64,000 nt of DNA from an uncultured Solirubrobacterales bacterium (GTDB lineage Bacteria; Actinomycetota; Thermoleophilia; Solirubrobacterales; 70-9). Shown in pieces: positions 8,779 through 22,831 of the stretch (position 1 is its first letter; each line of letters opens with the position of its first letter). The stretch covers positions 162,787 to 226,786 of the forward strand of contig CAVUXZ010000014.1 of NCBI GenBank assembly GCA_963745625.1. Reading direction: 5' to 3'. The notes below the pieces were generated by a model. The model ran no database searches, was not told the DNA's origin, and saw only the letters and a program-made list of their open reading frames with translations. The position numbers and the translations under genes are program-made.

Positions 8779-9379
8779 TACCTGCTCACCACCACGCGCG
8801 CGGGGCGCAGCACCTGGCCGTTGAGCCGGTAGCCCTTCTCCACGGTCTCCAGGACGACGCCGGATTCGGTGCCATCGGCGGGTTGCGCAGAGAGCGCCTC
8901 GTGCAGCTTCGGGTCGAACTTCTCGCCGGTCGGATCGAAGGCCTCGACGCCGGCGTTGCCGAGCTTGGCGCGGAGCTCCTCGAGCACGAGCTCCACTCCT
9001 CGGACCAGTCCCTCGCGCGCCGAGGGATCGCTGCCGCTCTGCAGCGCCCGCTCCAGGTTGTCGATCACCGGCAGCAGCTCGCGGGCGAGCTCTGCCTTGC
9101 CGCGGGCGAGGGCGTCGGAGGTCTCCTTCGCCACCCGCTTGCGGTAGTTCTCGAAATCCGCCCGCGTTCGCTGGGCCAGCTCGAGGTACTCGTCGCGCTC
9201 GCGCTTGGCTGCACTGAGCTCGTCGAGATCACGCTCGACCTGATCCGCGGCGCCGTTTCCGTCGGACTCCTCGGGGGTGGAGGGTGGTCGACGACCTCCG
9301 CGTCGACGACCTCCTCATCACCCTTCACATCACGGGTCGCGCCTTCGCGCGCCCTGGCATCGCGCTGATCGTCAGTCAT
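8778..9379 (-). CDS. grpE: nucleotide exchange factor GrpE, reading frame interrupted by an apparent 1-nt indel at a C5/G5 run (9273-9277)
   Basis: The conserved GrpE helix ...[50 protein letters not shown]... has no usable start codon in its own frame (stop TGA upstream). An ATG ORF ([36 protein letters not shown]) in another frame meets it at CCACCCCCGAGG. Confidence 0.85.
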
Positions 9380-9388
9380 GCGCGCTCC

Positions 9389-11293
9389 CTACGAGGTCTT
9401 CTCGTCGTCGACGACCTCCGCATCCACGACCTCCTCCTCGTCGCCGGCGCCGTTCTGCGAGGCGCCGTCCGTCGAGGAGGCCTCCTGCTGCTCGGCCGCC
9501 TGCGCGTAGATCTGTTCGGAGACCTTCTGGAAGGCCGCCTGCAGCGCATCCGAGCGGGACCGGATCTCGCCCACGTCCTCGGAGGCGAGGGAGTCCCTCA
9601 CGTCCTTGATCGCAGTCTCGATCTCGTCCTTGGCGCTCGCGTCGACCTTGTCGCCCAGCTCGCCGAGCTGCTTCTCCGCCTGGTAGGCGGCGTTCTCGGC
9701 AACGTTGCGGGCCTCGGCCAGCTCGCGCTGGCGGCGGTCCTCGTCGGCGTGCGACTCGGCGTCCTTGATCATCTGCTCGACCTCGGACTCATCGAGCCCG
9801 GATCCGCCCTTGATCTCGATCTTCTGCTCCTTGCCGGTGCCGAGATCCTTGGCGGAGACGTTGAGGATGCCGTTCGCGTCGATGTCGAAGGTCACCTCGA
9901 CTTGAGGCACGCCCCGCGGCGCGGGCGGAATGCCCGTGAGCTGGAACTTGCCCAGGCTCTTGTTGCCGGAGGCCATCTCGCGCTCACCCTGGAGCACGTG
10001 GACCTCGACCGACGGCTGGTTGTCCTCCGCCGTCGAGAAGATCTCCGACTTCTTCGTCGGGATCGTGGTGTTGCGCTCGATCAGCTTGGTCATCACGCCG
10101 CCCTTGGTCTCGATGCCGAGGGTGAGCGGGGTGACGTCGAGCAGCAGTACGTCCTTGACGTCGCCGGCCAATACGCCCGCCTGGATGGCGGCGCCGATCG
10201 CGACGACCTCGTCCGGGTTGACGCCCTTGTGCGGGTCCTTGCCGGTCAGCTCCTTGACCTTCTCCTGGACCGAGGGCATGCGGGTCATGCCGCCCACCAG
10301 GACGACGTGGTCGATGTCCGTGCCGGCGTCGGAGAGGGCCTGCTTAACCGGGCCGACCACCCGCTCGAGCAGATCCGAGGTGAGCTCGGAGAGCTTCGCC
10401 CGGGTCAGCTTGATGTCGAGGTGCTTCGGACCGGCGTCGGTCGCGGTGATGAACGGCAGGTTGATCTGCGTCTCCTGCGTGGTGGAGAGCTCGATCTTCG
10501 CCTTCTCCGCGGCCTCGTAGAGGCGCTGCAGGGAGTTCTTGTCCGCAGACAGGTCGACGCCCTGGTCGCGCTTGAACTCGGCGACCAGCCACTCGACGAT
10601 CGCCTTGTCCCAGTTGTCGCCGCCGAGGTGGTTGTCACCCGCGGTCGACTTCACCTCAAAAACGCCGTCGCCGATCTCCAGGACGGAGACGTCGAAGGTG
10701 CCGCCGCCGAGGTCGAAGACCAGGATCTTCTGGTCGGCGGCCTCCTTGTCGAGCCCGTAGGCCAGAGCGGCCGCCGTCGGCTCGTTGATGATGCGCTTGA
10801 CGTCGAGGCCGGCGACCTTGCCGGCGTCCTTGGTCGCCTGGCGCTGATCGTCGTTGAAGTAGGCCGGGACGGTGATCACGGCCGAGTCGACGGGCTCGCC
10901 GAGCTTCGACTCTGCGTCCGCCTTGAGCTTCTGCAGGATCATCGCCGAGATCTCCGGCGGGGAGTACTGCTTGCCGTCCACGTCGATGCGGACGTCGCCG
11001 TTGGGGCCGGCGACGACCTTGTACGGGACGATCGTCTCCTCCTCCTTGACCTCTGACTCCTTCCGCCCCATGAAGCGCTTGATCGAGAAGATCGTCTTCT
11101 CGGGGTTCATCACGGCCTGCCGCTTGGCGACCGTGCCGACCAGGCGCTCGCCCGAGTCGGTGAAGGCGACGACCGACGGAGTCGTCCTGCCGCCCTCTGC
11201 GTTCTCGATGATTTCCGGCTCGCCACCCTCCATGGCCGCCATGGCCGAGTTGGTGGTGCCGAGATCGATTCCGATCGTCTTCGCCACTTTCAT
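9389..11293 (-). CDS. dnaK: molecular chaperone DnaK (Hsp70)
   Basis: [18 protein letters not shown] and other Hsp70 signatures. The likely true start is GTG 11287 (GGAGG 7 nt upstream) or ATG 11293. The track ORF start at 11347 is a TTG extension. Confidence 0.97.
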
Positions 11294-11345
11294 TCCTCCA
11301 AAGCTTCGGATTGGCCTTCGAGCGTAGCCTTCAGGTGCGCCGCTC

Positions 11346-11366
11346 AAGAAATCTAAGTGAGAGTGT
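11346..11366. promoter_or_regulatory. candidate heat-shock operator/promoter element upstream of dnaK
   Basis: aagaaatctaagtgagagtgt shares 17/21 positions, including the 10-nt core aagaaatcta, with 6319-6339 upstream of clpB. In gene orientation TAGATTTCTT abuts a TTGAGC -35-like hexamer, followed by TACGCT. Confidence 0.35.
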
Positions 11367-13253: not shown

Positions 13254-14029
13254 TTCGCGCGGGGAACCATATAGGCGTCCGCCGCGCCGCTCTTGAAGAA
13301 GGGGCACATCCGGCGCAGCCCGCACTCGCCGCAGCGGGGGCGGGGGCGGCAGATTGCCCGCCCGTGCCGGATCAGGTTGACGTGGAGCTCGTAGGCGTCC
13401 TCCGGCGGGGTGATGGCGAGCATCTCGTTGTGCGCCTCCTCGAAGGGAGCGCCGAGCCGGAAGAGTCCGAGGCGCCCTCCGACCCGGTGCACGTGGGTGT
13501 CGACCGGGATCTCGGGGCGGCCGAAGGCGAAGATCATCACGCAGGCCGCCGTCTTGCGACCGACGCCCGGGAGGTCGTCGAGGTAGGAGAGCGCCTCCTC
13601 GCGCGGCGCCTCCGCCAGCCAGTCCAGGTCCGGATGGTCGCCCAGCCGCTCCAGGATCTCCTGGATCCGAGGGGCCTTGGTCACGCTCAGGCCGCCGGGT
13701 TTGATGGCCTCCTCCACTTCCTCGGCGGGCGCGTCGCGAACCTCCTCCCAGGTGGGGAACCGCTCGCGGAGGCGGGCGTAGGCAACGTCCCGGTTCCGGT
13801 CGTTGGTGTTCTGGGAGAGCACGGTTCGCACCAGCTCGGCGATCGGGTGCCCGTGTGGCTCATTGACGGGTTGCCCGTAGATCTCGCGGAGCCGGTCGCG
13901 GATCGCCAGCACGCGCCGTCGCGGCGGTCGCCTCCAGTCCGGGTCGCGCTTCGGCACGCGCGGCGGAGTTCCCGGAGGGAGCGTGGCGGCCCTGCCGTCC
14001 GCGAGTACGACCTTGGTGGGTAGCGGCAT
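13250..14029 (-). CDS. nth: endonuclease III (DNA glycosylase/AP lyase, 4Fe-4S)
   Basis: HhH-GPD pattern LPGVGRKTAACV...DTHVHRV and a C-terminal Cx6Cx2Cx5C cluster (CRPRPRCGECGLRRMC). Internal ATG at 14029. Confidence 0.9.
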   Translation of the reverse strand: MPLPTKVVLADGRAATLPPGTPPRVPKRDPDWRRPPRRRVLAIRDRLREIYGQPVNEPHGHPIAELVRTVLSQNTNDRNRDVAYARLRERFPTWEEVRDAPAEEVEEAIKPGGLSVTKAPRIQEILERLGDHPDLDWLAEAPREEALSYLDDLPGVGRKTAACVMIFAFGRPEIPVDTHVHRVGGRLGLFRLGAPFEEAHNEMLAITPPEDAYELHVNLIRHGRAICRPRPRCGECGLRRMCPFFKSGAADAYMVPRAK

Positions 14030-14924
14030 GACGCGAGGATATTCGTGGCGACCGGCGTGGATATCGTCCGCGCCCACCGTGGCCGAGATCGAGACGGGGA
14101 CCGTGCTGGTGGATGGCGTCTCCACCTTCTTCCGCAGCGTGAGCGGAGACGGTCCGCCCGCCGTCTTCGTCCACGGGAACCCCAGCCACTCGGCGGACTG
14201 GCAGCCCTTCCTCGAGCGCATCGACGGCCCCGCCCTGGCATTCGACCTCCCCGGCTGGGGGCACACGGCACGGCCCTCGCCGGCGGAGTTCGATTACTCG
14301 ATGTACGGGCTCGCCAGGTTCACGAGCCGCTTCCTGCAGCGGATGGCGGTGGACGAGTACTCGCTCGTCGTGCACGATTGGGGGACGGTCGGGCTGATCG
14401 CCGCCCAGGATGAGCCTGAGCGAGTGAGGCGCCTCGTGATCATCAATGCCGTGGCCTTGCTGCCGGGCTACCGCTGGCACCGGACCGCGCGGATCTGGAG
14501 GACGCGAGGCCTCGGCGAGCTTTCGCGTCGCCTGGCGACGAGACGGCTGGTCGACCTCGGTCTCCGCGAGTCACGTGCGGACTGGAGCCGGCACGAGGCC
14601 GCGTTCGTGGACGAGGTGCTCGCACAGCTGCGAGACCCCGCCGGTGTCCGGGCGATCCTGCGGCTCTACCGCTCCGCGGACCCCGAGCGTCTGGCGGCGG
14701 CAGGGGCGAGCCTTGGGTCGCTGGGCTGCCCGGCGCTGGTTGTCTGGGGCATGAAGGACCGCTACCTTTCCAGTCGCTTCGGCGCCGCCTACGCGGCCGC
14801 CCTGCCGGACTCGGAGCTGATCGAGCTCCCCGAAGCCGGGCACTGGCCCTGGATCGACGCCCCCGAGGTCGTCGATCGGGTGATCTGGTGGCTCGAGGGC
14901 GACGAAGAGTTCCGGCCCGCGTGA
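14028..14924 (+). CDS. alpha/beta-fold hydrolase (haloalkane dehalogenase/epoxide hydrolase-like)
   Basis: FVHGNPSHSADW, nucleophile-elbow-like VVHDWGT and a C-terminal GHWPW. The start is uncertain (ATG 14028 or GTG 14079). Confidence 0.75.
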   Translation: MTRGYSWRPAWISSAPTVAEIETGTVLVDGVSTFFRSVSGDGPPAVFVHGNPSHSADWQPFLERIDGPALAFDLPGWGHTARPSPAEFDYSMYGLARFTSRFLQRMAVDEYSLVVHDWGTVGLIAAQDEPERVRRLVIINAVALLPGYRWHRTARIWRTRGLGELSRRLATRRLVDLGLRESRADWSRHEAAFVDEVLAQLRDPAGVRAILRLYRSADPERLAAAGASLGSLGCPALVVWGMKDRYLSSRFGAAYAAALPDSELIELPEAGHWPWIDAPEVVDRVIWWLEGDEEFRPA

Positions 14925-14961: not shown

Positions 14962-15720
14962 ATGCGTGCGGCGATCGACAAAACCGGCAGTTGGCTACCG
15001 CAGGGTTACGGCGACGCGGCCCGGCAGCTCAGCCTGTTCGTGGTCGCGGAGCTCTGCTACGAGGCCGTGCGTGGCGTCGCCGACGGCCAGCGGGCGACCG
15101 CCATCGCCAACGGGCAGCACGTGATCTCGTTCGAGAAGAGCATCCACGCCTTCTTCGAGCCGAACCTGCAGAAGGTGTTCATCGATCACCGCTGGATCAT
15201 CGACTTCGCCAACTTCATGTACATGAACAGCCACTTCGTGGTGACGACCGCGTTCCTGGTCTGGCTCTACATCTTCAGGAACCAGAACTTCTACTTCGTC
15301 CGGAACATGTTCATGGTCGCGATGGGGTTGGCGGTGATCGGCTATGCGCTCCTGCCCACGGCGCCCCCGCGGTTGTTCGACGAGTTCACCGACACGGTCA
15401 CGAAGTACGCCCAGGTCAATCACGACTCCGGCCTGGTGAAGCTGTTCATCAATCCGTATGCGGCGATCCCCAGCATGCACGTGGCCTTCTCCACCATGAT
15501 CGGCGTCACCGGCGCCCTGATCTCGAGGCACACCATCAGCAAGATCTTCTGGTGCGCCTATCCGGTGCTCGTCTTCTGGGTCGTCATCGTCACCGCGAAC
15601 CACTTCTGGGTTGACGGCGCCTTCGGCCTGCTCGTCGCAGTGCTGTCGGCCGTCACTGCGAGGCTCATCCTGGCCCGCGTCCGGCCCGCCGCATGGTCCT
15701 GGCGGCCGGCAACAGCTTGA
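14962..15720 (+). CDS. PAP2-superfamily membrane protein, Aur1/Ipt1-like (phosphoinositol/phospholipid head-group transferase-like), paralog 1
   Basis: Polytopic, with motifs LLPTAPPR, NPYAAIPSMHVAFS and NHFWVD (HxxxD) in the PAP2 C2/C3 arrangement. Paralogous to 17357-18166. Confidence 0.65.
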   Translation: MRAAIDKTGSWLPQGYGDAARQLSLFVVAELCYEAVRGVADGQRATAIANGQHVISFEKSIHAFFEPNLQKVFIDHRWIIDFANFMYMNSHFVVTTAFLVWLYIFRNQNFYFVRNMFMVAMGLAVIGYALLPTAPPRLFDEFTDTVTKYAQVNHDSGLVKLFINPYAAIPSMHVAFSTMIGVTGALISRHTISKIFWCAYPVLVFWVVIVTANHFWVDGAFGLLVAVLSAVTARLILARVRPAAWSWRPATA

Positions 15721-17360
15721 GCGCACGAGACATGCTTCGCCGCTACGGCGAGCCGGGCCTCGTGGCCGCTGCCCTCGGCGTGGCCTACCTGATCATCCAG
15801 CCGGACAGCGCCGATCACGCCGCCCAGATCTACCGGTCGGACCTGTTCGCGAACCAGGGGCTGGTGACCTGGGACAACGGCTGGTTCGGCGGCCACCATC
15901 TCCCTGGCTACGGGGTTCTGCTACCCGTGCTCGGGGGTCTGATCGGGCCGCGGCTGGTCGGAGTGGCGGCGGCCATCGTTGCGGCGCTGCTCTTCTCGTC
16001 GATCGCGTACGACCGCTTCGACGAGCGTGCCCGCCTCGGCGTGATCTGGTTCGCGACCGCGACGGCGATCAGCCTGTTCACCGGGCGCCTCACCTTCGCT
16101 CTCGGCGTGGCGGTCGCGCTCTGCGCGGTGCTCGCGGCCCAGCGGGGTCACCGCTGGCTGGCGATCCTGTTCGCCGCGGCGACTCCCCTGGCGAGCCCGG
16201 TCGCCTCGCTGTTCCTGGCCTGCGGAGTGGTCGCGTACGCGATCGCGGAACGCAGCCGCAGGGGGCTCGAGCTCGCCGTCGTCAGCGTCGGCGTCGCGCT
16301 GCTGATCTCCGCGGCCTTCCCCGAGGGAGGCACCGAGCCCTTCGACTTCTCGAGCTACGAGCCGGCAATCCTGGTGGCGATTGCCGTCTTCGTCGCGCTC
16401 CCGCCCGAGGAGCGGCTGCTCCGTTACGGCGTCGCCGCCTATGGGGCCGCGCTGACGGCGGCTTTCCTGATCCAGACCCCGATGGGCGGAAACGCCACCC
16501 GAATGGGATCGCTGCTGCTCGGGCCGGTCCTCGCCTTCGGCCTCTGGCGCCGCCAGCGTTTCGCGCTGATCCTGCTCGTGCCGGTCCTGATCTACTGGCA
16601 GTGGTCGCCGGTGGTGCGGGACCTGGAGGAGGTGAGCGCGCAGCCCTCGGTGAGCGCCGGCTACTACGCACCACTCATCGACTTCCTGCGCGGTCAGCCG
16701 CATCGCGATTCCCAGCGGGTGGAGGTTCTCCCGGAGGAGCATCACTGGGAGTCGGCCTACGTGCCCAACGGGATCTACATAGCAAGAGGCTGGGAGCGCC
16801 AGCTCGACCGCAAGCTCAATCCGCTCTTCTACCAGTCAGCCCCGCTGACCGGGGCGGAGTACCGCAGCTGGCTCGACGACCTCGGGGTCGGCTATGTGGC
16901 GGTCCCTCGGGCGCCGCTCGACTACGCGGCCCTGGGCGAGAAGCGGCTGATCAAGAAGGGCCCGCCCTCCTACCTGGAGCAGGTCTTCCACAGCAAGAAC
17001 TGGACCGTCTACGCGGTGCGGCATCCGTCGCCGCTCGCCATCGGCGGAACGATGGTGAAGCTGACGCCCCAGGGCTTCGTGGTTGACGCGAGCCAGCCGG
17101 GCACCGTGCTCGTCCGGGTGCACTGGACGCCCTACTGGTCGATCGAGCACGGCAGCGGCTGCGTCGAGCAGGCGCCGGGCGGCTACACGATGATCGACGT
17201 CACCACGCCGGGTCGCTTCCGCGTCGGCATTGACTTCACGCCCTGGCGGGCCGTCAGCTCGGGCCCGCGCTGTCACCAGGACCCGGTGATCCAGTACGGG
17301 ACGGCGCAGTCCTCGGCGGGGCGGGCGGCCGCCATCGCCCGCATGGGCGGGGCCCGGTGA
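15693..17360 (+). CDS. polytopic membrane protein with a ~200-aa C-terminal soluble domain, GT-C-like glycosyltransferase candidate
   Basis: About 12 hydrophobic segments, then a globular tail. An acidic first loop (QPDSADHAAQIYRSDLF...WDNGWFGGHH) recalls GT-C enzymes. Alternative start ATG 15732. The stop overlaps the next gene's start (GTGA). Confidence 0.45.
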   Translation: MVLAAGNSLSARDMLRRYGEPGLVAAALGVAYLIIQPDSADHAAQIYRSDLFANQGLVTWDNGWFGGHHLPGYGVLLPVLGGLIGPRLVGVAAAIVAALLFSSIAYDRFDERARLGVIWFATATAISLFTGRLTFALGVAVALCAVLAAQRGHRWLAILFAAATPLASPVASLFLACGVVAYAIAERSRRGLELAVVSVGVALLISAAFPEGGTEPFDFSSYEPAILVAIAVFVALPPEERLLRYGVAAYGAALTAAFLIQTPMGGNATRMGSLLLGPVLAFGLWRRQRFALILLVPVLIYWQWSPVVRDLEEVSAQPSVSAGYYAPLIDFLRGQPHRDSQRVEVLPEEHHWESAYVPNGIYIARGWERQLDRKLNPLFYQSAPLTGAEYRSWLDDLGVGYVAVPRAPLDYAALGEKRLIKKGPPSYLEQVFHSKNWTVYAVRHPSPLAIGGTMVKLTPQGFVVDASQPGTVLVRVHWTPYWSIEHGSGCVEQAPGGYTMIDVTTPGRFRVGIDFTPWRAVSSGPRCHQDPVIQYGTAQSSAGRAAAIARMGGAR

Positions 17361-18166
17361 CCATCGCCGAGCTGCGTCGACGTTTCCTCCCCCGCGGGCC
17401 GCTGGACCTCGCGATCCAGCTGGTGCTGCTCGCCGCCGCCTATTGGGCCTGGCGCCACGCCCGCGGCGCGGTCGACGGCAGCATGGGGCTCTCGTTCTCC
17501 CACGCCCGTGACCTGGTCAGCACGGAGCGCTCGCTCGGCCTGCTGATCGAGCCGAGCGTCCAGCACTGGGCGGTGCACGCGGGCTGGCCGGCCGACGTAG
17601 CCCGCTGGGGCTACGCCAACCTCCACTTCAAGGGGAGCTGCCTGATGCTCGCCGTCCTCTACTTCGGCTACCGCGGCAGCTTCGGCTTCGTCCGGAATGC
17701 GGTCTTCGCCGCGATGGCCATCTCCGTCATCGGCTATGCGCTTTTCCCGACCGCGCCGCCGCGGTTCCTCCCCGAGCTCGGACTCGATCCCTCGACCCAC
17801 ATAACCGGCAACAACCCGCTGCTCTCGAGCCCGGGTGATCCTCTCTTCAATCCGTTCGCGGCCGTGCCCTCGATGCACGTCGGCCTCTCGGTGATCCTGG
17901 CCTGGTCGCTGGCGATGCTGGTACGCCCACCGGTGATTCGCGGGCTGCTCTTCGCCTATCCACTGCTGATGACCTTCGTCGTGGTCGCCAGCGGCAACCA
18001 TTTCTGGCTCGACGTCGTCTTCGGCCTGCTCACGGCCGCGGTCGCGACAGGCGTCGCTATCCTCCTGGCCCGGCTCAATCCGGACTGGTCGTTCGGCGGC
18101 TTCCAGCGCCGTTCACCGTCTGGAGAAGTGGAACCCCAGCCGGAGCCCGAGGCAGCGCCCGCGTAG
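17357..18166 (+). CDS. PAP2-superfamily membrane protein, Aur1/Ipt1-like, paralog 2
   Basis: ALFPTAPPR, NPFAAVPSMHVGLS, GNHFWLD: the same motif set and spacing as 14962-15720. Confidence 0.65.
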   Translation: MTIAELRRRFLPRGPLDLAIQLVLLAAAYWAWRHARGAVDGSMGLSFSHARDLVSTERSLGLLIEPSVQHWAVHAGWPADVARWGYANLHFKGSCLMLAVLYFGYRGSFGFVRNAVFAAMAISVIGYALFPTAPPRFLPELGLDPSTHITGNNPLLSSPGDPLFNPFAAVPSMHVGLSVILAWSLAMLVRPPVIRGLLFAYPLLMTFVVVASGNHFWLDVVFGLLTAAVATGVAILLARLNPDWSFGGFQRRSPSGEVEPQPEPEAAPA

Positions 18167-18178
18167 GGCCAATCCCCG

Positions 18179-18880
18179 ATGAGCATCGACCAGCGAGACC
18201 CTCCCCGCAACGGGTCAGCCGCGCCCGCGGCTCGACCGACCGCCGCGGCGGAGCTCTCAGCCACGGTCCGCGACCGCCTGATCGAGTCGCGCCTCACCCC
18301 GAACGCGATCTCGATGGTCGGCCTGATCGGCAACCTGGCCGCCGCCGTGCTGATCTGGCAGGGCTTTTATTTCCTCGGTGGCGTCGCCTTCATCATCGGC
18401 TCGGTGATGGATACGCTCGACGGGCGCTATGCGCGCGCCTCGGGCAAGGGAACGCTCTTCGGCGCTTTTCTCGACTCGACGCTCGACCGGGTTGAGGAGG
18501 GGCTGGTGCTCACCGCCGTCGCCTATCGATTCGCCCTCTCCGGCGACGAGTTCGCCGCCGCGATGTGCGTGGTCGTGGTGCTGGGCTCGCTGATGGTCTC
18601 GTACACGCGGGCGCGGGCCGAGGCGCTTGGCGTCGAGTGCAAGGTCGGGTTGGCCACGCGCCCGGTCCGGGTAGTCATACTCTCGATCGGCCTCGTTTTT
18701 GCGAAGGGAGCCGGAGTGTTCGATGCAGATCTGCTCGCCCCGGCCATCTACGCTATGGCGGCGCTGACGGCTGTCACCGTGGTACAGCGTGTATGGCACG
18801 TGAGGAACGAGCTCAAGATGCGCGGCGCGGATGTCCAGCAGGCGCCCGTCGAGAACTCCGTTCCCGCCGACGACGTGTAA
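18179..18880 (+). CDS. CDP-alcohol phosphatidyltransferase, PgsA1-like (phosphatidylinositol-phosphate synthase-like)
   Basis: [30 protein letters not shown] fits D-x2-DG-x2-AR-x8-G-x3-D-x3-[12 protein letters not shown] and a TVVQRVWHV tail resemble mycobacterial PgsA1 as I recall it. Confidence 0.85.
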
Positions 18881-18942
18881 CCAGGCGGCAGCGCAAGTGT
18901 GATTTCAAAGCTGAGTCTCGTTACCTAGGAGGATTCCCAGAG

Positions 18943-20127
18943 ATGAGCACCGTGAATGGAAGAGCCAACGGCGCCAGCCGCAATGGCGGCCAGGACGAGA
19001 AGGTCCGGGTCGCGATCGTCGGCGTAGGCAACTGCGCGAGCTCTTTCGTGCAGGGCGTCCAGTACTACCAGGACGCCGATCCCGCCGAGCAGGTTCCGGG
19101 CCTCATGCATGTGGATCTGGGCGGCTACCACATCAGCGACATCGAGTTCACAGCCGCATTCGACATCGATGCCGACAAGGTCGGGAAGGACCTCTCGGAG
19201 GCGATCTTCTCCGGCCAGAACAACACCTATGTGTTCTCCGAGGTGCCGAACCTGGGGGTAAAGGTCCATCGCGGCATGACCCACGACGGCCTCGGCAAGT
19301 ACCTGAAGGAGAAGATCACCAAGGCCCCGGGCCAGACCGCAGACATCGTCGGGATCCTCCAGGACACCCTGACGGACGTGCTCGTCTGCTACCTGCCGGT
19401 CGGCTCCGAGCAGGCGACCAAGTGGTACGTCGAGCAGGCGCTCGCCGCCGGCGTGGGCTTCGTCAACTGTCTGCCCGTCTTCATCGCCCGCGAGGACTAC
19501 TGGGATCGGCGCTTCGAGGAGGCCGGCCTGCCGATCATCGGCGATGACATCAAGTCCCAGGTCGGCGCGACGATCGTTCACCGCCAGCTGGCCAGGCTGT
19601 TTGCCGACCGCGGCGTGCGCATGGAGCGCACCAGTCAGCTCAACGTCGGCGGGAACATGGACTTCTACAACATGCTCGAGCGCGAGCGGCTCGAGTCAAA
19701 GAAGATCTCGAAGACCAACGCGGTCACCTCGATAATGGACCACGAGCTGCCCGCCGAGGACGTCTACATCGGCCCCTCGGACTACGTGCCGTGGCTGACC
19801 GACCGCAAGTGGGCTCACATCAGGGTCGAGGGCAGGTCGTTCGGCGATGTCCCTCTCAACCTCGAGCTCAAGCTGGAGGTCTGGGACTCCCCGAACTCAG
19901 CCGGCATCGTCATCGACGCAGTCCGGATCGTGAAGCTGGCGCTGAACCACGGCCTCACGGGCCAGCTGGATGGCCCCTCGAGCTACCTGATGAAGTCGCC
20001 GCACAACCAGCGGCCCGATCCGGTGGCGCGCGAGATGACCGAGGAGTTCATCGGCGAGTACGCCCGGCAGCGCGGCGCGCCTGCGGGCAGGGCGAACAAC
20101 AAGACCAAGGCCAAATCGAAGTCCTAG
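18943..20127 (+). CDS. ino1: myo-inositol-1-phosphate synthase
   Basis: [22 protein letters not shown] Rossmann start and later [23 protein letters not shown] motifs typical of actinobacterial Ino1. AGGAGG RBS 10 nt before the ATG at 18943. Confidence 0.92.
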
Positions 20128-20246: not shown

Positions 20247-22175
20247 GTGGGCGGCGAGTCCCTCTCCATCGCTCAGGTGAGCCCTCATCCTTGGGGGGCG
20301 CGGCATGAGATCAACGAGTTCGTCAGGCGGACCTCCGAGGAGCTCGCTGCGCGAGGACATCGGGTGCTGATCGTGGCGCCGTCCGAGTCGCGGACCGCCA
20401 TCCGCGAGAGCCGGCGGCTGATCCGTGAGGCGGGGAAAGACCCCGGCGCGCTGCTCAGCGGGGAGAACCCGAGGGTGGTGGCGATCGGCCAGAGCATCCC
20501 GCTTCCGAGCGGCCCGCGCCGCCGGCCCGCGCCGCTGCCGCTCGACATCAGCGGGGCGCTCGAGCGCCTGCTGGGCGCCGTGCCGCTCGACCTGGTGCAC
20601 GTCCACGAGCCCTTCGCCCCCAGCACCGGATCCGCGGCGCTGCGGCATTCGCAATCGCTCAACGTGGCGAGCTTCCACGATCCAGTAGAGCGCGTCCTCT
20701 CCACGCAGGTGGCGCGGATGCTGGTGGAGGTGTTCTTCGGGCGCATCGACGAGCGGTTGGCCAGCAACGACGCGACCGGCGAGCTCCTGCAGCGCTTCTT
20801 CCCGGGCCGGTACCAGCTGGTCAGGCCGGGGGCCGACGCCGCCGAGCCGGCGCTCGGGCCGCCTCCGGCGGGGCGGGTGCGAATCACGTACTGCGCCGAG
20901 GAGGAGCGAGGCGCTCTGCGGCTGCTGCTGCGCGCCCTGCGCAAGCTCCCGGACGACCTCGACTGGGAGGGCGTGATCTGGTTCGACGGCCCGACGGATC
21001 CGCTCGTCCGTGTCAGCAGGCGACTGAGGGAGCGTCTCCGCCTCGTCAGGCCGGGGGACGGCGAGCCGGGCGAGTTCCTGGCCGGGGCGGACATCGCCGT
21101 TCTCGCATCCGGCGGCGTGCGCGTGGCGCCGGGCGTCGTCCGGAAGGCATTCGCCGCGGGCGCGGTGCCTGTCGTCTCGGATCTCGAGCTCTATCGCGAG
21201 CTGGTCGGCGAGGGCGAGCGCGGATTGCTCTTCCCATTCGGCGACGTGCTCACGCTCAGTGCCCAGCTGGAGAGGCTATGTCGCGACGCGGCCTTGCGCG
21301 AGCGTTTCCGTGCCACCGCCCGGGAGTCCGGCGAGGCCCGGCCCTGGGCCGAGGTGACCGACGATCTCGAGGCCGTCTACCGCCGGCTCACCGGGAGGCG
21401 CCAGGATCCGGACGGGAACGCGGCGATCCGTACCCGTCTGCGGTCTCGCGACCACATCCACTGTGACCTGCACATGCATACGGATCACTCGCCGGACTGC
21501 GCGACCCCCGCCCAGCTGCTGCTCGAGACCGCAAAGGAGCAGGGGCTCGGCGCGATCGCGATCACAGACCACAACGAGATCTCCGGCGCGCTGGAGGCCC
21601 GCGAGATCGCCGAGCGGATCGGCGGGATCAAGGTGATCCTGGCGGAGGAGGTGAAGACAGCGCACCAGGGGGAGGTGATCGGCCTGTTCCTGACCGAGCG
21701 GATCGAGCGCGGGATGTCGATGGCGGAGACGATCGCCGAGATCCGCCGGCAGGGAGGACTCGTCTACGTCCCGCATCCGTTCGACCGGCTGCACTCGGTG
21801 CCCGACTACGAGCACCTGCTCGAGATCGTCGACGAGATCGACATCCTCGAGGTCTTCAACCCGCGCGTCGCCTTCTCGGCCTTCAATGAGGAGGCGGTGC
21901 GCTTCGCCCGCAAGTACTCGATCGTCCCCGGCGCCGGCTCGGACAGCCATGTCGCCCAGGGACTCGGCAGCGTCAAGATCCGTCTACGGGATTTCGATGG
22001 CCCGCAGGAGTTCCTCGAGTCGATGCGGGACGCGGACATCGTCCGCAAGCACAAGAACCTCGTCTACGTCCAGGCGCTCAAGTTCCTCCAGACGAGCGGC
22101 GGGCGGGGTGGGCGGTCCCTGGCGGAACGTGACGGTCGTCGCAAGCCGCGCCGCCGTGCCGCGAGCAAGAGTTGA
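20247..22175 (+). CDS. fusion protein: PimA-like GT4 (GT-B) glycosyltransferase domain + C-terminal PHP-family phosphoesterase domain
   Basis: The N-terminal ~390 aa are colinear with PimA-type GT4 (LDLVHVHEPFAPS, ...VVSDLELYRELV...). The C-terminal ~240 aa carry PHP metal motifs HCDLHMHTDHS, ITDHNE, VPHPFD, GSDSH. Confidence 0.8.
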   Translation: MGGESLSIAQVSPHPWGARHEINEFVRRTSEELAARGHRVLIVAPSESRTAIRESRRLIREAGKDPGALLSGENPRVVAIGQSIPLPSGPRRRPAPLPLDISGALERLLGAVPLDLVHVHEPFAPSTGSAALRHSQSLNVASFHDPVERVLSTQVARMLVEVFFGRIDERLASNDATGELLQRFFPGRYQLVRPGADAAEPALGPPPAGRVRITYCAEEERGALRLLLRALRKLPDDLDWEGVIWFDGPTDPLVRVSRRLRERLRLVRPGDGEPGEFLAGADIAVLASGGVRVAPGVVRKAFAAGAVPVVSDLELYRELVGEGERGLLFPFGDVLTLSAQLERLCRDAALRERFRATARESGEARPWAEVTDDLEAVYRRLTGRRQDPDGNAAIRTRLRSRDHIHCDLHMHTDHSPDCATPAQLLLETAKEQGLGAIAITDHNEISGALEAREIAERIGGIKVILAEEVKTAHQGEVIGLFLTERIERGMSMAETIAEIRRQGGLVYVPHPFDRLHSVPDYEHLLEIVDEIDILEVFNPRVAFSAFNEEAVRFARKYSIVPGAGSDSHVAQGLGSVKIRLRDFDGPQEFLESMRDADIVRKHKNLVYVQALKFLQTSGGRGGRSLAERDGRRKPRRRAASKS

Positions 22176-22831
22176 TGCATGCCCAAGGGGCCGGGGCCGG
22201 GCCGAAGAAAAGGCAAGGGGCCGTGTCATCCATCACCGACGATGAGATCCGCGAGAAGTACCTGGAACGCGCGATCCGGGAGCTGAACGACCTGGGCAGG
22301 GATCTGGCCACCTGCGAGGACTGCCCCCGGGGCAACGTGATGCCGGTGCAGGGCTCCGGCCATCCCCAGGCCGACATCCTCATGCTGAAGCGCGCCGCGA
22401 CCCCCTCGGAGATCGAGGAGGGGGTTGCCTTCTACGGCCGGGCGGGCAACGCCCTGATGAAGAGCTTCAAGCGGCTCGCGATCGACCCGATCGTTGTGTT
22501 CGGAACGCTCTGCGTGAAGTGCCCGCTCACCGACCCGACCCATGCATCGGAGGCCTGCATCGCCAGAGTCGCCGAGGAGATCCCGATCGTTCAGCCGCGG
22601 ATCGTGGTGGTGATGGGAGCCGAGGCGCTCGAGGTGCTGAACGATCTCGAGCTGCCCCTCGCCGACCGGATTGAGTCGCTCGAGGGTGACGTGCAGCGCC
22701 TCACCCCGACGATCGACGCGCTCTATGTGCCGGACATCGACGAGTCTCTCGATACCGACGACTCCAAGCAGCGCTTCTGGTCGGCGTTCCGGGTGCTCGG
22801 CGAGTGGTACGACAAGCTGCCGCCGTATTAG
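22175..22831 (+). CDS. uracil-DNA glycosylase superfamily protein (family 4/5-like, non-canonical motif A)
   Basis: CEDCPRG...VQGSGHPQADILMLKRAATPSEIEEGVAFYGRAGNAL follows the UDG family-4 layout, but the GEGP position reads GSGH. The ATG overlaps the upstream stop (TGATG). Confidence 0.55.
   Translation: MHAQGAGAGPKKRQGAVSSITDDEIREKYLERAIRELNDLGRDLATCEDCPRGNVMPVQGSGHPQADILMLKRAATPSEIEEGVAFYGRAGNALMKSFKRLAIDPIVVFGTLCVKCPLTDPTHASEACIARVAEEIPIVQPRIVVVMGAEALEVLNDLELPLADRIESLEGDVQRLTPTIDALYVPDIDESLDTDDSKQRFWSAFRVLGEWYDKLPPY

Follow-up and report, generated by a model that had tools for sequence, protein, structure and literature searches.

Bacterial synthesis of phosphatidylinositol (PI) passes through PIP, and PimA then mannosylates PI, a lipid acceptor. 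The pathway was reportedly revised in 2010, and the actinobacterial enzyme that removes the phosphate is said to have been called unidentified since. The locus analysed here, a 64,000-nucleotide stretch of DNA from an uncultured Solirubrobacterales bacterium (the window), raises the question of what a phosphoesterase does when it is fused to a PimA-like module and encoded next to genes of PIP synthesis. The initial annotation had proposed a PIP phosphatase and had stated that the gene for this activity was not firmly assigned in Actinobacteria; the literature agrees, describing the actinobacterial enzyme as unidentified (PMC6506517; bioRxiv 10.64898/2026.07.15.738315, July 2026). So far, two enzymes have been proposed: in Bacteroides, one of the PgpA type (2022), and in mycobacteria, an alpha/beta hydrolase as a candidate (2026 preprint). 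The functional explanation that we develop here, based on comparative genomics only, points to the fusion as a strong candidate for the missing enzyme converting PIP to PI in one class of Actinobacteria.

The fusion gene and its neighbourhood

A single, uninterrupted open reading frame, opened by GTG and closed by TGA, encodes the fusion. Pfam matches, all above the gathering score, place Glyco_transf_4 at aa 25–198 and Glycos_transf_1/Glyco_trans_1_4 at aa 220–360, followed by PHP at aa 407–491 and PHP_C at aa 547–595. No transmembrane segment was predicted in the protein, and an AlphaFold2 model of its full length reached a pLDDT of 85.3 and a pTM of 0.84. The gene and its parts are as follows:

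20247–22175, + strand: fusion gene, PimA-derived GT-B module plus PHP phosphoesterase, 642 aa (ORF, Pfam, PimA match, AlphaFold2)
20247–20831, + strand: GT-B N-terminal Rossmann subdomain, aa 1–195, the acceptor and membrane side in PimA (alignment, model)
20832–21401, + strand: GT-B C-terminal subdomain, aa 196–385, degenerate, the nucleotide-sugar side in PimA (alignment; roles from PMC9883506)
21120–21146, + strand: EX7E remnant, R292 ... K300 in GGVRVAPGVVRKAFAAG, against GGESFGIVLVEAMAAG in PimA (alignment)
21444–22106, + strand: compact PHP/PHP_C phosphoesterase domain, aa 400–620, with the full metal-ligand set (Pfam, ligands, model)

How widespread the fusion is had been left as a question by the initial annotation, which also considered that the two domains might have been joined artificially. 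Relatives of the fusion are encoded in 566 genome stretches, and the same GT4–PHP fusion, at 84–92% identity, is present in more than 120 protein clusters, spread over hundreds of Thermoleophilia genomes (Solirubrobacterales, Thermoleophilaceae and Gaiellales). The continuous reading frame and the hundreds of independent assemblies carrying the same fusion rule out an assembly artefact or a frameshift between the domains.

The fusion gene lies in a run of genes on the same strand:

13983–14924, + strand: alpha/beta hydrolase of the haloalkane-dehalogenase/epoxide-hydrolase type (HGNP ... HDWG), which heads the cluster in many loci
14962–15720, + strand: PAP2_3 membrane protein, paralogue 1
15693–17360, + strand: multi-pass membrane protein of 555 aa between the two PAP2_3 genes, found in 39 of 71 related loci
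17357–18166, + strand: second PAP2_3 membrane protein (paralogue 2), resembling IPC synthase and keeping its place in most, though not all, loci
18179–18880, + strand: CDP-alcohol phosphatidyltransferase (PIP synthase, PIPS), conserved core (best NCBIfam matches)
about 18943–20127, + strand: myo-inositol-phosphate synthase (MIPS), conserved core (PF01658; TIGR03450, 543 bits)
22175–22831, + strand: UDG-superfamily protein, the start of which overlaps the fusion stop codon (TGATG)

The best NCBIfam matches of the phosphatidyltransferase, archaetidylinositol-phosphate synthase (140 bits) and PIP synthase (134 bits), are both below their cut-offs of 180 and 170, respectively. The start of MIPS was set at the Met of MSTVNG, inside a longer mechanical ORF (18565–20127). 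The PAP2_3 proteins weakly match the NCBIfam model for phosphoinositol-ceramide synthase, and the 555-aa membrane protein had no Pfam match even at E ≤ 10.

PIPS, MIPS and the fusion form a conserved same-strand core in 68 of the 71 loci with enough flanking sequence, with a median gap of 158 nt between MIPS and the fusion gene; the position right after pgsA1-like and ino1 genes, to which the initial annotation had attached weight, recurs across these loci. In 76 of 78 loci, the UDG-like gene lies downstream of the fusion. In the clade of P0281, P0288 and P0322, the triad occurs in three unrelated neighbourhoods, with the PAP2_3 and UDG-like genes missing. Because all of the loci come from one class, some of this synteny reflects inheritance rather than selection. 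The UDG-like protein has a non-canonical motif A and has lost the GEAPG catalytic motif, and whether this protein or the alpha/beta hydrolase at 13983–14924 belongs to the system is uncertain.

A decayed transferase half joined to an intact phosphoesterase

Among solved structures, Mycobacterium smegmatis PimA (2gej/4n9w) was the best match by sequence (E 7e-18, aa 56–384), at about 24–28% identity, and PimA (2gej) was also the top Foldseek match of the AlphaFold2 model (TM 0.79 on the target). The related transferase MshA appeared among the fold matches of the model and was absent from the solved-structure sequence search with the window protein at E ≤ 0.01. Judged from these comparisons, the N-terminal module descends from PimA. 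An MshA/MshA2-type fusion serving mycothiol, in which a GlcNAc-inositol-phosphate synthase with an intact UDP-GlcNAc site would be joined to its phosphatase, is ruled out by the PimA-like character of the module, by the absence of MshA at that threshold and by the loss of the donor site described below.

In PimA, the Gly-rich loop (G16) together with R196 and K202 holds the donor pyrophosphate, E274 contacts mannose and E282 contacts ribose (PMC9883506). In the homologue ManT, alanine at the equivalents of E282 or K202 abolishes activity and alanine at the equivalent of E274 drastically lowers it (PMC9883506). HMMER and MAFFT alignments agree that both glutamates of the EX7E motif have been replaced in the window protein, E274 by R292 (nt 21120–21122) and E282 by K300 (nt 21144–21146). 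By MAFFT, the Gly-rich loop is gone (G15G16 is aligned with H20/E21), and C216 and G222 stand in place of R196 and K202, so that five of the five donor-contact residues (G16, R196, K202, E274 and E282) are replaced, by E, C, G, R and K, respectively; R201 (R221) and H118 (H144) are retained. These alignments bear out what the initial annotation had read from the letters: a PimA-like N-terminal module, a diverged GG loop near its start, and substitution of both EX7E glutamates, which it had located within 21108–21161.

Across the family, glutamate occupies PimA position 274 in only 5 of 349 sequences. The replacements differ between clades: Gaiellales have a deletion of the loop, and in other clades position 274 holds R, A or S, a variation more in keeping with decay than with the rise of a new conserved site. 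The N-terminal subdomain retains the PimA-like motifs DxxHVHEPxxPS and VA(S/T)FH, and a basic helix (aa 49–64) with an invariant R56 is inserted relative to PimA; in the comparison with PimA, this insertion after strand 2 comprises 24 residues. In comparisons with close relatives, dN/dS was 0.07–0.14 in both GT subdomains, and none of the loci was seen to carry a frameshifted copy. The decayed glycosyltransferase half therefore remains under purifying selection and is functional in some way.

A sister clade bears on the origin of this state. In the P0290 clade, which comprises at least 120 protein clusters, the same fusion occurs with the PimA residues intact: G16, H118, R201, K202, E274 and E282 are retained in most members, with variation at G15/G16, and P0290 matched PimA at E 1.4e-66 and MshA at 1e-16. 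The gene order is also the same (PAP2_3–PIPS–MIPS–fusion–UDG), and the PHP domain of the window protein is 52% identical to that of the P0290 clade. By architecture and synteny the two groups of fusions are orthologous, but the P0290 clade keeps the donor-contact residues whereas the window protein lacks a donor site. The window gene is thus a PimA–PHP fusion in which the transferase half has decayed. The fusion originally joined two enzymes, and the death of the transferase is a later, lineage-specific change; the module did not originate as a dedicated recognition domain. The sister clade also means that the phosphoesterase is physically joined to an enzyme that consumes PI. In the literature that we searched, we found no description of fusions with an intact PimA from uncultured Thermoleophilia or Actinomycetota.

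The PHP half presents a different picture. PF02811 (49.6 bits; cut-off 26.4) and PF13263 (38.5 bits; cut-off 21.3) both matched, and the ligand pattern is complete (HxH, D, DH, E, H, H, DxH). Among 20–62 diverse homologues, H409, H411, D417, D441/H442, E468, H510, D566 and H568 are invariant, and H516 shows at most slight variation. The PHP domain shares 51–56% identity with distant clades, versus 23–35% for the GT halves; the PHP half thus bears the constraint in the fusion. A model of the PHP domain only (pLDDT 90.2) matched the PHP barrels of TM0559 (2anu; TM-score 0.72) and RNase AM (7ug9; Foldseek E 8e-13). The intact metal set that the initial annotation had listed, and for which it had suggested a structural check, is borne out by the alignment, with H516 the one ligand that may vary slightly. 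On these sequence and structural grounds, the module is best described as an intact, strongly conserved metal-dependent phosphoesterase.

The nearest PHP structures were RNase AM, the uncharacterised TM0559, a pAp phosphatase, polymerase PHP domains and EndoQ; the fold search returned no lipid-directed PHP relative, and we know of no PHP enzyme that acts on a lipid head group. NCBIfam searches gave no full-length match to the TrpH, RNase AM or 3′,5′-bisphosphate nucleotidase families, with NF041577 reaching 36.5 bits against a cut-off of 400 and NF047791 36 bits against 375, over aa 405–478 only, and the domain has no TrpH insertion. Neither Pfam nor NCBIfam matched a PgpA family to the fusion, so that the fusion, if it is a PIP phosphatase, would be a non-homologous one. 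Among the best 80 of the 566 loci, the PHP subfamily had no members from outside Thermoleophilia. A search of representative sequences for stand-alone PHP orthologues in other taxa returned mostly fragments of fusions; the only short protein that looked complete, P0238 (226 aa), differs little from the PHP half of a fusion clade.

A candidate step from PIP to PI

Because PimA consumes PI, a phosphoesterase fused to PimA would be best placed one step upstream or downstream of it. The mechanism that we favour is one in which the fusion protein would be soluble and membrane-peripheral, with two modules, and would be co-transcribed with inositol-3-phosphate synthase and PIP synthase. The PHP module would take the 3-phosphate off PIP to give PI, thereby supplying the missing second step by which bacteria make PI. 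In an ancestral form that would survive in the sister clade, PI may have been passed straight to the fused active PimA to yield PIM1. In the lineage of the window, the PimA half would no longer transfer mannose and may act as a non-catalytic module with one or both of two tasks, keeping the phosphatase membrane-bound and orienting the inositol-phosphate head group. We put the chance that the PHP domain dephosphorylates PIP to PI while the dead PimA module serves to dock it on the membrane or head group at about even. We counted in favour of PIP phosphatase activity the PimA fusion partner, the PIPS–MIPS context, the constraint on the PHP domain, the selection on the GT module, the hole in the pathway and the PI reported in Solirubrobacter (PMC10722151). 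The sister clade with an intact PimA and the survival of the triad in unrelated neighbourhoods are independent support beyond what the initial annotation had to go on. Counted against it were the substrates of the nearest characterised PHP enzymes, which act on nucleotides, RNA or DNA, the linkage to the UDG-like gene (76 of 78 loci), which is as tight as that to MIPS upstream except in one clade, the share of the synteny that is due to common inheritance, the PAP2_3 proteins as possible phosphatases, and the PIMs reported for a Solirubrobacter strain, which call for PimA activity from some gene of that genome.

Other products of the cluster were considered for the same reaction. The PAP2_3 superfamily includes lipid phosphate phosphatases, so the PAP2_3 proteins could in principle dephosphorylate PIP; this is unlikely, as they show PSMH and HxxxD but lack the K...RP motif of PAP2 phosphatases, and they are absent from around the triad in one clade. 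The alpha/beta hydrolase was rejected as an EphE-like phosphatase without a nucleophile, because it keeps the nucleophile Asp of HDWG and has the look of an ordinary dehalogenase or epoxide hydrolase.

The gene context would also be explained if the PHP domain acted on another inositol phosphate, namely soluble inositol-3-phosphate, in an IMPase-like route to free inositol, or a phosphorylated inositol lipid or glycolipid made later by the PAP2_3 or multi-pass proteins, with the PimA remnant binding that head group. The presence among the fold matches of MshA, a GT4 relative that binds soluble inositol phosphate, is in keeping with such a role, and two PAP2_3 proteins and an unannotated membrane protein in the cluster suggest further inositol-lipid chemistry. 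However, the fusion partner is PimA-like and not MshA-like in both the window protein and P0290, PimA uses a lipid as its acceptor, hydrolysis of inositol-3-phosphate beside PIP synthase would take away the substrate of the synthase, and loci without PAP2_3 genes still have the core triad; we regard another inositol phosphate as an unlikely substrate. We hold it to be more doubtful still, and indeed improbable, that the PHP domain is a nucleotide or nucleic-acid phosphoesterase, clearing GDP/GMP or pAp or taking part in DNA repair with the UDG-like protein, and that its link to PI genes is historical. Such a role would fit the characterised relatives (RNase AM, 3′,5′-bisphosphate nucleotidase, polymerase PHP domains and EndoQ), the UDG-like gene that overlaps the fusion stop codon and the Nudix-domain protein gene with which the mycobacterial pimA operon ends (bioRxiv 10.64898/2026.07.15.738315). 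Yet the NCBIfam matches, at 36 bits, fall well short of the cut-offs of 375–400 and cover only the first ~70 residues of the domain, which resembles the compact TM0559 type without the TrpH insertion. Moreover, a PHP domain serving the nucleotide chemistry of PimA should relax once the GDP-mannose site decays, whereas it is the most conserved part of the protein; the P0281 clade lost the UDG-like gene and kept PIPS–MIPS–fusion; and the UDG-like protein is without its GEAPG motif.

The remaining alternative concerns the GT4 module, which might be an active glycosyltransferase with a remodelled donor site, in which R292 and K300 hold a sugar phosphate or another anionic donor, the protein being bifunctional as in the intact clade. 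The purifying selection on the module, the retained H118 and N-domain cleft motifs, and the lack of any other PimA-like ORF within the 64-kb window are compatible with this possibility, as are the PIMs reported by TLC for a Solirubrobacter strain (PMC10722151), which imply that PimA activity is needed somewhere in the genome. Set against these points, all donor contacts and the Gly-rich loop have been lost, the equivalent ManT alanine variants are inactive or drastically impaired (PMC9883506), the replacements differ between clades in a manner fitting decay, and the window is a small part of a genome in which a separate PimA may lie elsewhere. We consider continued glycosyl transfer very unlikely.

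Comparison with known systems

M. smegmatis PimA and the fusion have the GT-B fold and the motifs HxHEPxxPS and ATFH in common; both are without a transmembrane segment, and both genes are linked to that of PIP synthase, as in the mycobacterial pgsA–patA–pimA operon (bioRxiv 10.64898/2026.07.15.738315). The fusion differs from it in the five replaced donor residues, the basic-helix insertion and the C-terminal PHP domain. The closest parallel in proposed reaction is BT_1525 of Bacteroides thetaiotaomicron, a PgpA-family enzyme and the only characterised bacterial PIP phosphatase, whose gene likewise clusters with those of PIP synthase, inositol-phosphate synthase and an inositol-lipid enzyme of the PAP2 type (PMC9246714). 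The PgpA and PHP folds are unrelated, and the role of BT_1525 is backed by genetics, as PIP accumulates in the deletion mutant (PMC9246714), whereas the fusion is a candidate. EphE (Rv3670), the candidate mycobacterial PIP phosphatase, resembles the fusion in that a hydrolase would be physically held with PimA at the membrane and is proposed to supply PI, in a complex that is predicted (bioRxiv 10.64898/2026.07.15.738315). EphE is, however, a nucleophile-less alpha/beta hydrolase associated non-covalently through a scaffold, whereas the partner in the fusion is a covalently linked PHP metalloenzyme, and both are candidates.

We think it possible, though somewhat short of an even chance, that the PHP domain is the Thermoleophilia PIP 3-phosphatase, a third independent solution with a fold unlike those of the PgpA-type enzymes and EphE, and that the PimA remnant is a pseudo-glycosyltransferase reused as a docking domain for lipid head groups and the membrane, its former donor pocket having gained an anion site made up of the basic residues R292 and K300. 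If so, the PHP superfamily would gain a lipid head-group activity, and the module would be a clear case of a glycosyltransferase fold kept after loss of catalysis. The fusion alone would not solve the mycobacterial question; the PHP subfamily was found only in Thermoleophilia among the best 80 of 566 loci. It does provide a concrete, testable protein, a PimA-fused phosphoesterase encoded with PIPS and MIPS, for which the natural versions with active and dead PimA serve as built-in controls.

For the PHP half, TM0559 (2anu), RNase AM (7ug9) and the pAp phosphatase Cv1693 (2yb1) share the barrel and the metal-ligand pattern at 16–26% identity, and the substrates of RNase AM and Cv1693 are nucleotides or RNA. 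In overall design, the fusion recalls sucrose-phosphate synthase, in which a GT4 module and a C-terminal SPP-like domain correspond to consecutive steps and one module is often non-catalytic. In that enzyme, transfer precedes dephosphorylation and it is usually the phosphatase-like half that is inactive; in the fusion, the order would be reversed, and the inactive half is the transferase.

A PimA-like module that has lost its donor contacts

The gene running from 20247 (GTG) to 22175 (TGA) on the + strand is a single uninterrupted ORF of 642 codons, in whose product Pfam recognized four regions, each above its gathering score; transmembrane prediction returned no segment in the fusion protein. 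On base composition (about 69% G+C) and closest homologues, we assign the window to the Solirubrobacterales (class Thermoleophilia, Actinomycetota).

Pfam regions of the fusion protein
aa 25-198, Glyco_transf_4
aa 220-360, Glycos_transf_1 / Glyco_trans_1_4
aa 407-491, PHP
aa 547-595, PHP_C

Among all PDB sequences, M. smegmatis PimA, the GDP-mannose:phosphatidylinositol (PI) mannosyltransferase, was the sole glycosyltransferase matched at E≤0.01 (E 7e-18, aa 56-384), with no match to MshA or other GT4 enzymes at that threshold. PimA was also the best structural match (2gej, TM 0.79 normalized to the target) of an AlphaFold2 model built with 62 homologues (mean pLDDT 85.3, pTM 0.84), with BshA and MshA behind. 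In PimA, G16, R196 and K202 grip the GDP-mannose pyrophosphate, E274 touches mannose and E282 binds ribose; in the homologue ManT, alanine at the equivalent of E282 or K202 abolished activity and at that of E274 drastically reduced it (PMC9883506). HMMER and MAFFT alignments concurred at the EX7E positions (E274 and E282), and the remaining rows below are from MAFFT, those for R196 and K202 being backed by HMMER and G15/G16 preceding the start of the HMMER alignment.

PimA residues and their counterparts in the fusion protein
G15 G16, H20 E21 (MAFFT)
R196, C216 (MAFFT, supported by HMMER)
K202, G222 (MAFFT, supported by HMMER)
E274, R292 (HMMER and MAFFT)
E282, K300 (HMMER and MAFFT)
R201, retained as R221 (MAFFT)
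H118, retained as H144 (MAFFT)

The initial annotation had described a PimA-like N-terminal module with both EX7E glutamates replaced and a diverged N-terminal GG loop, and the residue table, together with the retained PimA-like N-domain motifs DLVHVHEPFAPS and VASFH, proves it correct in every particular. The PHP metal-binding set, which it had read as intact, is conserved throughout the family: in alignments of 20 and 62 diverse homologues, H409, H411, D417, D441/H442, E468, H510, D566 and H568 were invariant, and H516 invariant or nearly so. A model of the PHP domain alone reached pLDDT 90.2, and its nearest structures included the RNase AM PHP domain (7ug9) and the compact uncharacterized PHP protein TM0559 (2anu, TM 0.72), with PsfC, BAD_1165, the pAp phosphatase Cv1693, polymerase PHP domains and EndoQ as further neighbours. 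We consider the predicted PHP fold and metal site established by alignment and model. All nearest structures shared 16-26% identity with the domain, and NCBIfam matches to named PHP enzymes fell far under their cut-offs and spanned just its first ~70 residues, so that the substrate is not readable from homology.

Spread of the fusion and decay of its PimA half

Over the whole protein, more than 120 protein clusters matched at 84-92% identity, which, with the continuous ORF, answers the earlier concern that the fusion might be an artefact. A search of 1.84 billion representatives recovered full-length fusions down to ~33% identity, and a scan in which each species was represented by one genome located 566 stretches encoding relatives, the best 80 of which were all from Thermoleophilia (Solirubrobacterales, Thermoleophilaceae, Paraconexibacteraceae and unclassified MAGs); as seen in these 80, the fusion is confined to that class. 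A profile of distant members further recovered another Thermoleophilia clade and a 577-aa relative from Gaiellaceae, of which Pfam recognizes only the N-terminal GT subdomain. One 596-aa sequence from the representative library (P0256) showed the reverse decay, its PHP HxH and other ligands being gone (DLRLRPTADADPV) while the GT half aligned normally; pseudogenization or an error in sequencing might explain this lone case.

A table of the PimA donor positions in 349 members of the family brought out one protein, P0290, which reads GGHGRKEE where PimA reads GGHRRKEE. It matched PimA with E 1.4e-66 (next GT4 enzyme, 3e-24; MshA, ~1e-16) and, as a query, retrieved 120 or more additional clusters with 59-85% identity and an unchanged architecture, in which E274, E282 and R201 were retained almost without exception and K202, H118 and G16 in the majority. 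Megabase contigs show that this clade has the gene order PAP2_3 - PIPS - MIPS - fusion - UDG-like ... TrmA, as in the window. Shared architecture and gene order make the window gene orthologous to a PimA-PHP fusion whose PimA half is intact. On the sequences the intact state must be ancestral, because re-evolution of five PimA-identical residues is implausible. Decay took several forms: in Gaiellales the E274 loop is deleted and E282 retained, in Solirubrobacterales position 274 holds R, A or S and position 282 K or R, and both K202 and E282 survive in the P0281 clade. The donor-side subdomain is 48% identical to its PimA counterpart in the intact clade versus 28-30% in the decayed ones. The intact clade also encodes a separate 216-221-aa PHP_C-only protein ~5 kb downstream of the fusion, beside a YjbQ gene (17133-17798, - strand, in locus L086; 17166-17816, - strand, in L087); the window showed no such paralogue.

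Against the six closest orthologues, dN/dS was 0.07-0.12 for the GT N-subdomain, 0.08-0.14 for the GT C-subdomain and 0.06-0.10 for the PHP domain, with dS nearing saturation past the closest relatives. The dead GT remnant is thus under purifying selection close in strength to that on the PHP half over short distances, and does not drift. Over long distances the PHP half is far better conserved (51-56% versus 23-35% identity). Residues conserved across decayed clades lie mostly in the N-subdomain, which in PimA is the acceptor and membrane side; among them are P13, W16, N23, R56, D115, H118, E121, P122, R133, R149, R166 and D168. R56 belongs to an inserted basic helix (aa 49-64), which PimA lacks and all fusion clades share.

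A conserved gene triad and a candidate PIP phosphatase

Genes of the cluster
13983-14924 (+), alpha/beta hydrolase of haloalkane-dehalogenase/epoxide-hydrolase type (HGNP ... HDWG ... GHW)
14962-15720 (+), PAP2_3 paralogue
15693-17360 (+), 555-aa membrane protein with six or more hydrophobic segments, C-terminal part soluble
17357-18166 (+), PAP2_3 paralogue
18179-18880 (+), predicted phosphatidylinositol phosphate (PIP) synthase, PIPS
18943-20127 (+), myo-inositol-phosphate synthase, MIPS
20247-22175 (+), fusion
22175-22831 (+), UDG-superfamily protein, family-4-like, N-terminal CxxC retained, KRAAT where catalytic motif A (GEAPG) would stand; its start overlaps the fusion stop (TGATG)

The position after pgsA1-like and ino1 genes that the initial annotation had remarked on is conserved: PIPS and MIPS lie upstream on the same strand in 68 of 71 loci with at least 3.5 kb of flank. 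PAP2_3 genes (58 of 71) and the 555-aa protein (39 of 71) also occur upstream, and a UDG-like gene downstream (76 of 78). The MIPS-to-fusion distance has a median of 158 nt and is larger in 22 of 68 loci, owing to genes inserted between the two in several lineages; extra genes without a Pfam match encode 456 aa (L001, 8583-9953, +), 220 aa (L082, 9311-9973, +) and 160 aa (L089, 7364-7846, +). Synteny by itself is weak evidence, since all these genomes come from one class. Three P0281-clade members, however, have wholly different flanks (two lie by a pknB/ftsW/PBP cluster and one by TetR/MFS genes), with neither PAP2_3 nor UDG-like gene, yet PIPS-MIPS-fusion is intact; because it persists among unrelated flanks, the triad is the conserved unit.

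MIPS produces inositol-3-phosphate, and PIPS forms PIP from it and CDP-diacylglycerol; PIP next needs a phosphatase to become PI, which PimA mannosylates. Sharing a gene cluster with the first two enzymes and a polypeptide with the fourth, the PHP module would most simply be the third, with the PimA remnant as a membrane and head-group docking module, a role we infer from known PimA biology, the better-conserved acceptor-side subdomain and purifying selection. This is the best-supported hypothesis, at about an even chance, and fusion of PHP to an intact PimA in the orthologous clade now backs it by a Rosetta-stone argument that the initial annotation, which had proposed such a phosphatase, did not have. 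Its view that the actinobacterial enzyme lacked a firm assignment agrees with the literature, where the PIP phosphatase was 'yet-unidentified' in 2019 (PMC6506517) and a preprint of July 2026 called it 'as-yet unidentified' and 'long-sought' (bioRxiv 10.64898/2026.07.15.738315). Bacteroides uses for this step a PgpA-family protein whose gene accompanies those of PIPS and MIPS (PMC9246714), whereas the window protein has no PgpA similarity in Pfam or NCBIfam. The union of a PHP phosphoesterase with a PimA glycosyltransferase is an undescribed fusion, and our literature search found no paper tying a PHP domain to PI synthesis or PimA. The proposed activity would be new to the PHP superfamily, and the long-open question becomes directly testable, at least for Thermoleophilia.

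Gene context would also fit action on another inositol phosphate, be it inositol-3-phosphate in soluble form or a phospho-inositol lipid made further along, but the fusion partner is PimA, not MshA, and the triad survives without PAP2_3 genes, which makes this alternative, a rather unlikely one, less parsimonious. The idea that PHP acts on nucleotides or nucleic acids, perhaps together with the product of the UDG-like gene, draws on which structures lie nearest to the domain and on the tight downstream linkage of that gene; we regard it as improbable, given that the PHP family matches are sub-threshold and partial, that one clade has lost the UDG-like gene and that its product carries the GEAPG-to-KRAAT change. 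Moreover, the PHP domain stays the most constrained part and the PIPS-MIPS link persists after PimA decay, which argues that PHP serves the PIPS/MIPS side and not the nucleotide chemistry of PimA. Purifying selection on the GT4 module, and the PI mannosides reported for a Solirubrobacter strain (PMC10722151), could indicate that the transferase is still active and that its donor site has been remodelled; this, too, is improbable, since all five donor contacts are gone and their replacements vary inconsistently between clades.

Other genes of the window

The two PAP2_3 paralogues, 34-40% identical, flank the 555-aa protein, whose gene ends overlap both of theirs, suggesting translational coupling. 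Both carry PSMH and H-x3-D motifs, with PTAPPR at the place of K-x6-RP, a motif of PAP2 phosphatases, and for one of them the NCBIfam phosphoinositol-dihydroceramide synthase model gives a weak hit (E 4e-4). They resemble phosphatases less than inositol-phosphate transferases (IPC-synthase type), whose chemistry would be unexpected for an actinobacterium. For the 555-aa protein Pfam returned nothing, even with the threshold relaxed to E≤10; it may act in the inositol-lipid pathway as a GT-C-like glycosyltransferase.

The alpha/beta hydrolase gene stands at the cluster head in many Thermoleophilia loci. As candidate for the mycobacterial PIP phosphatase, the July 2026 preprint puts forward EphE, an epoxide-hydrolase-like alpha/beta hydrolase for which association with PimA is predicted (bioRxiv 10.64898/2026.07.15.738315); the window's hydrolase retains the nucleophile Asp, whereas EphE does not.

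An ORF at 9284-11056 (+), in a region that also contains DnaJ and ClpB, matches Pfam PF10712 (NAD-GH) very strongly and lies antisense to a 652-aa ORF (9389-11347, -). A shadow ORF, with a chaperone gene (probably dnaK) on the other strand, seems likelier than a real glutamate dehydrogenase.
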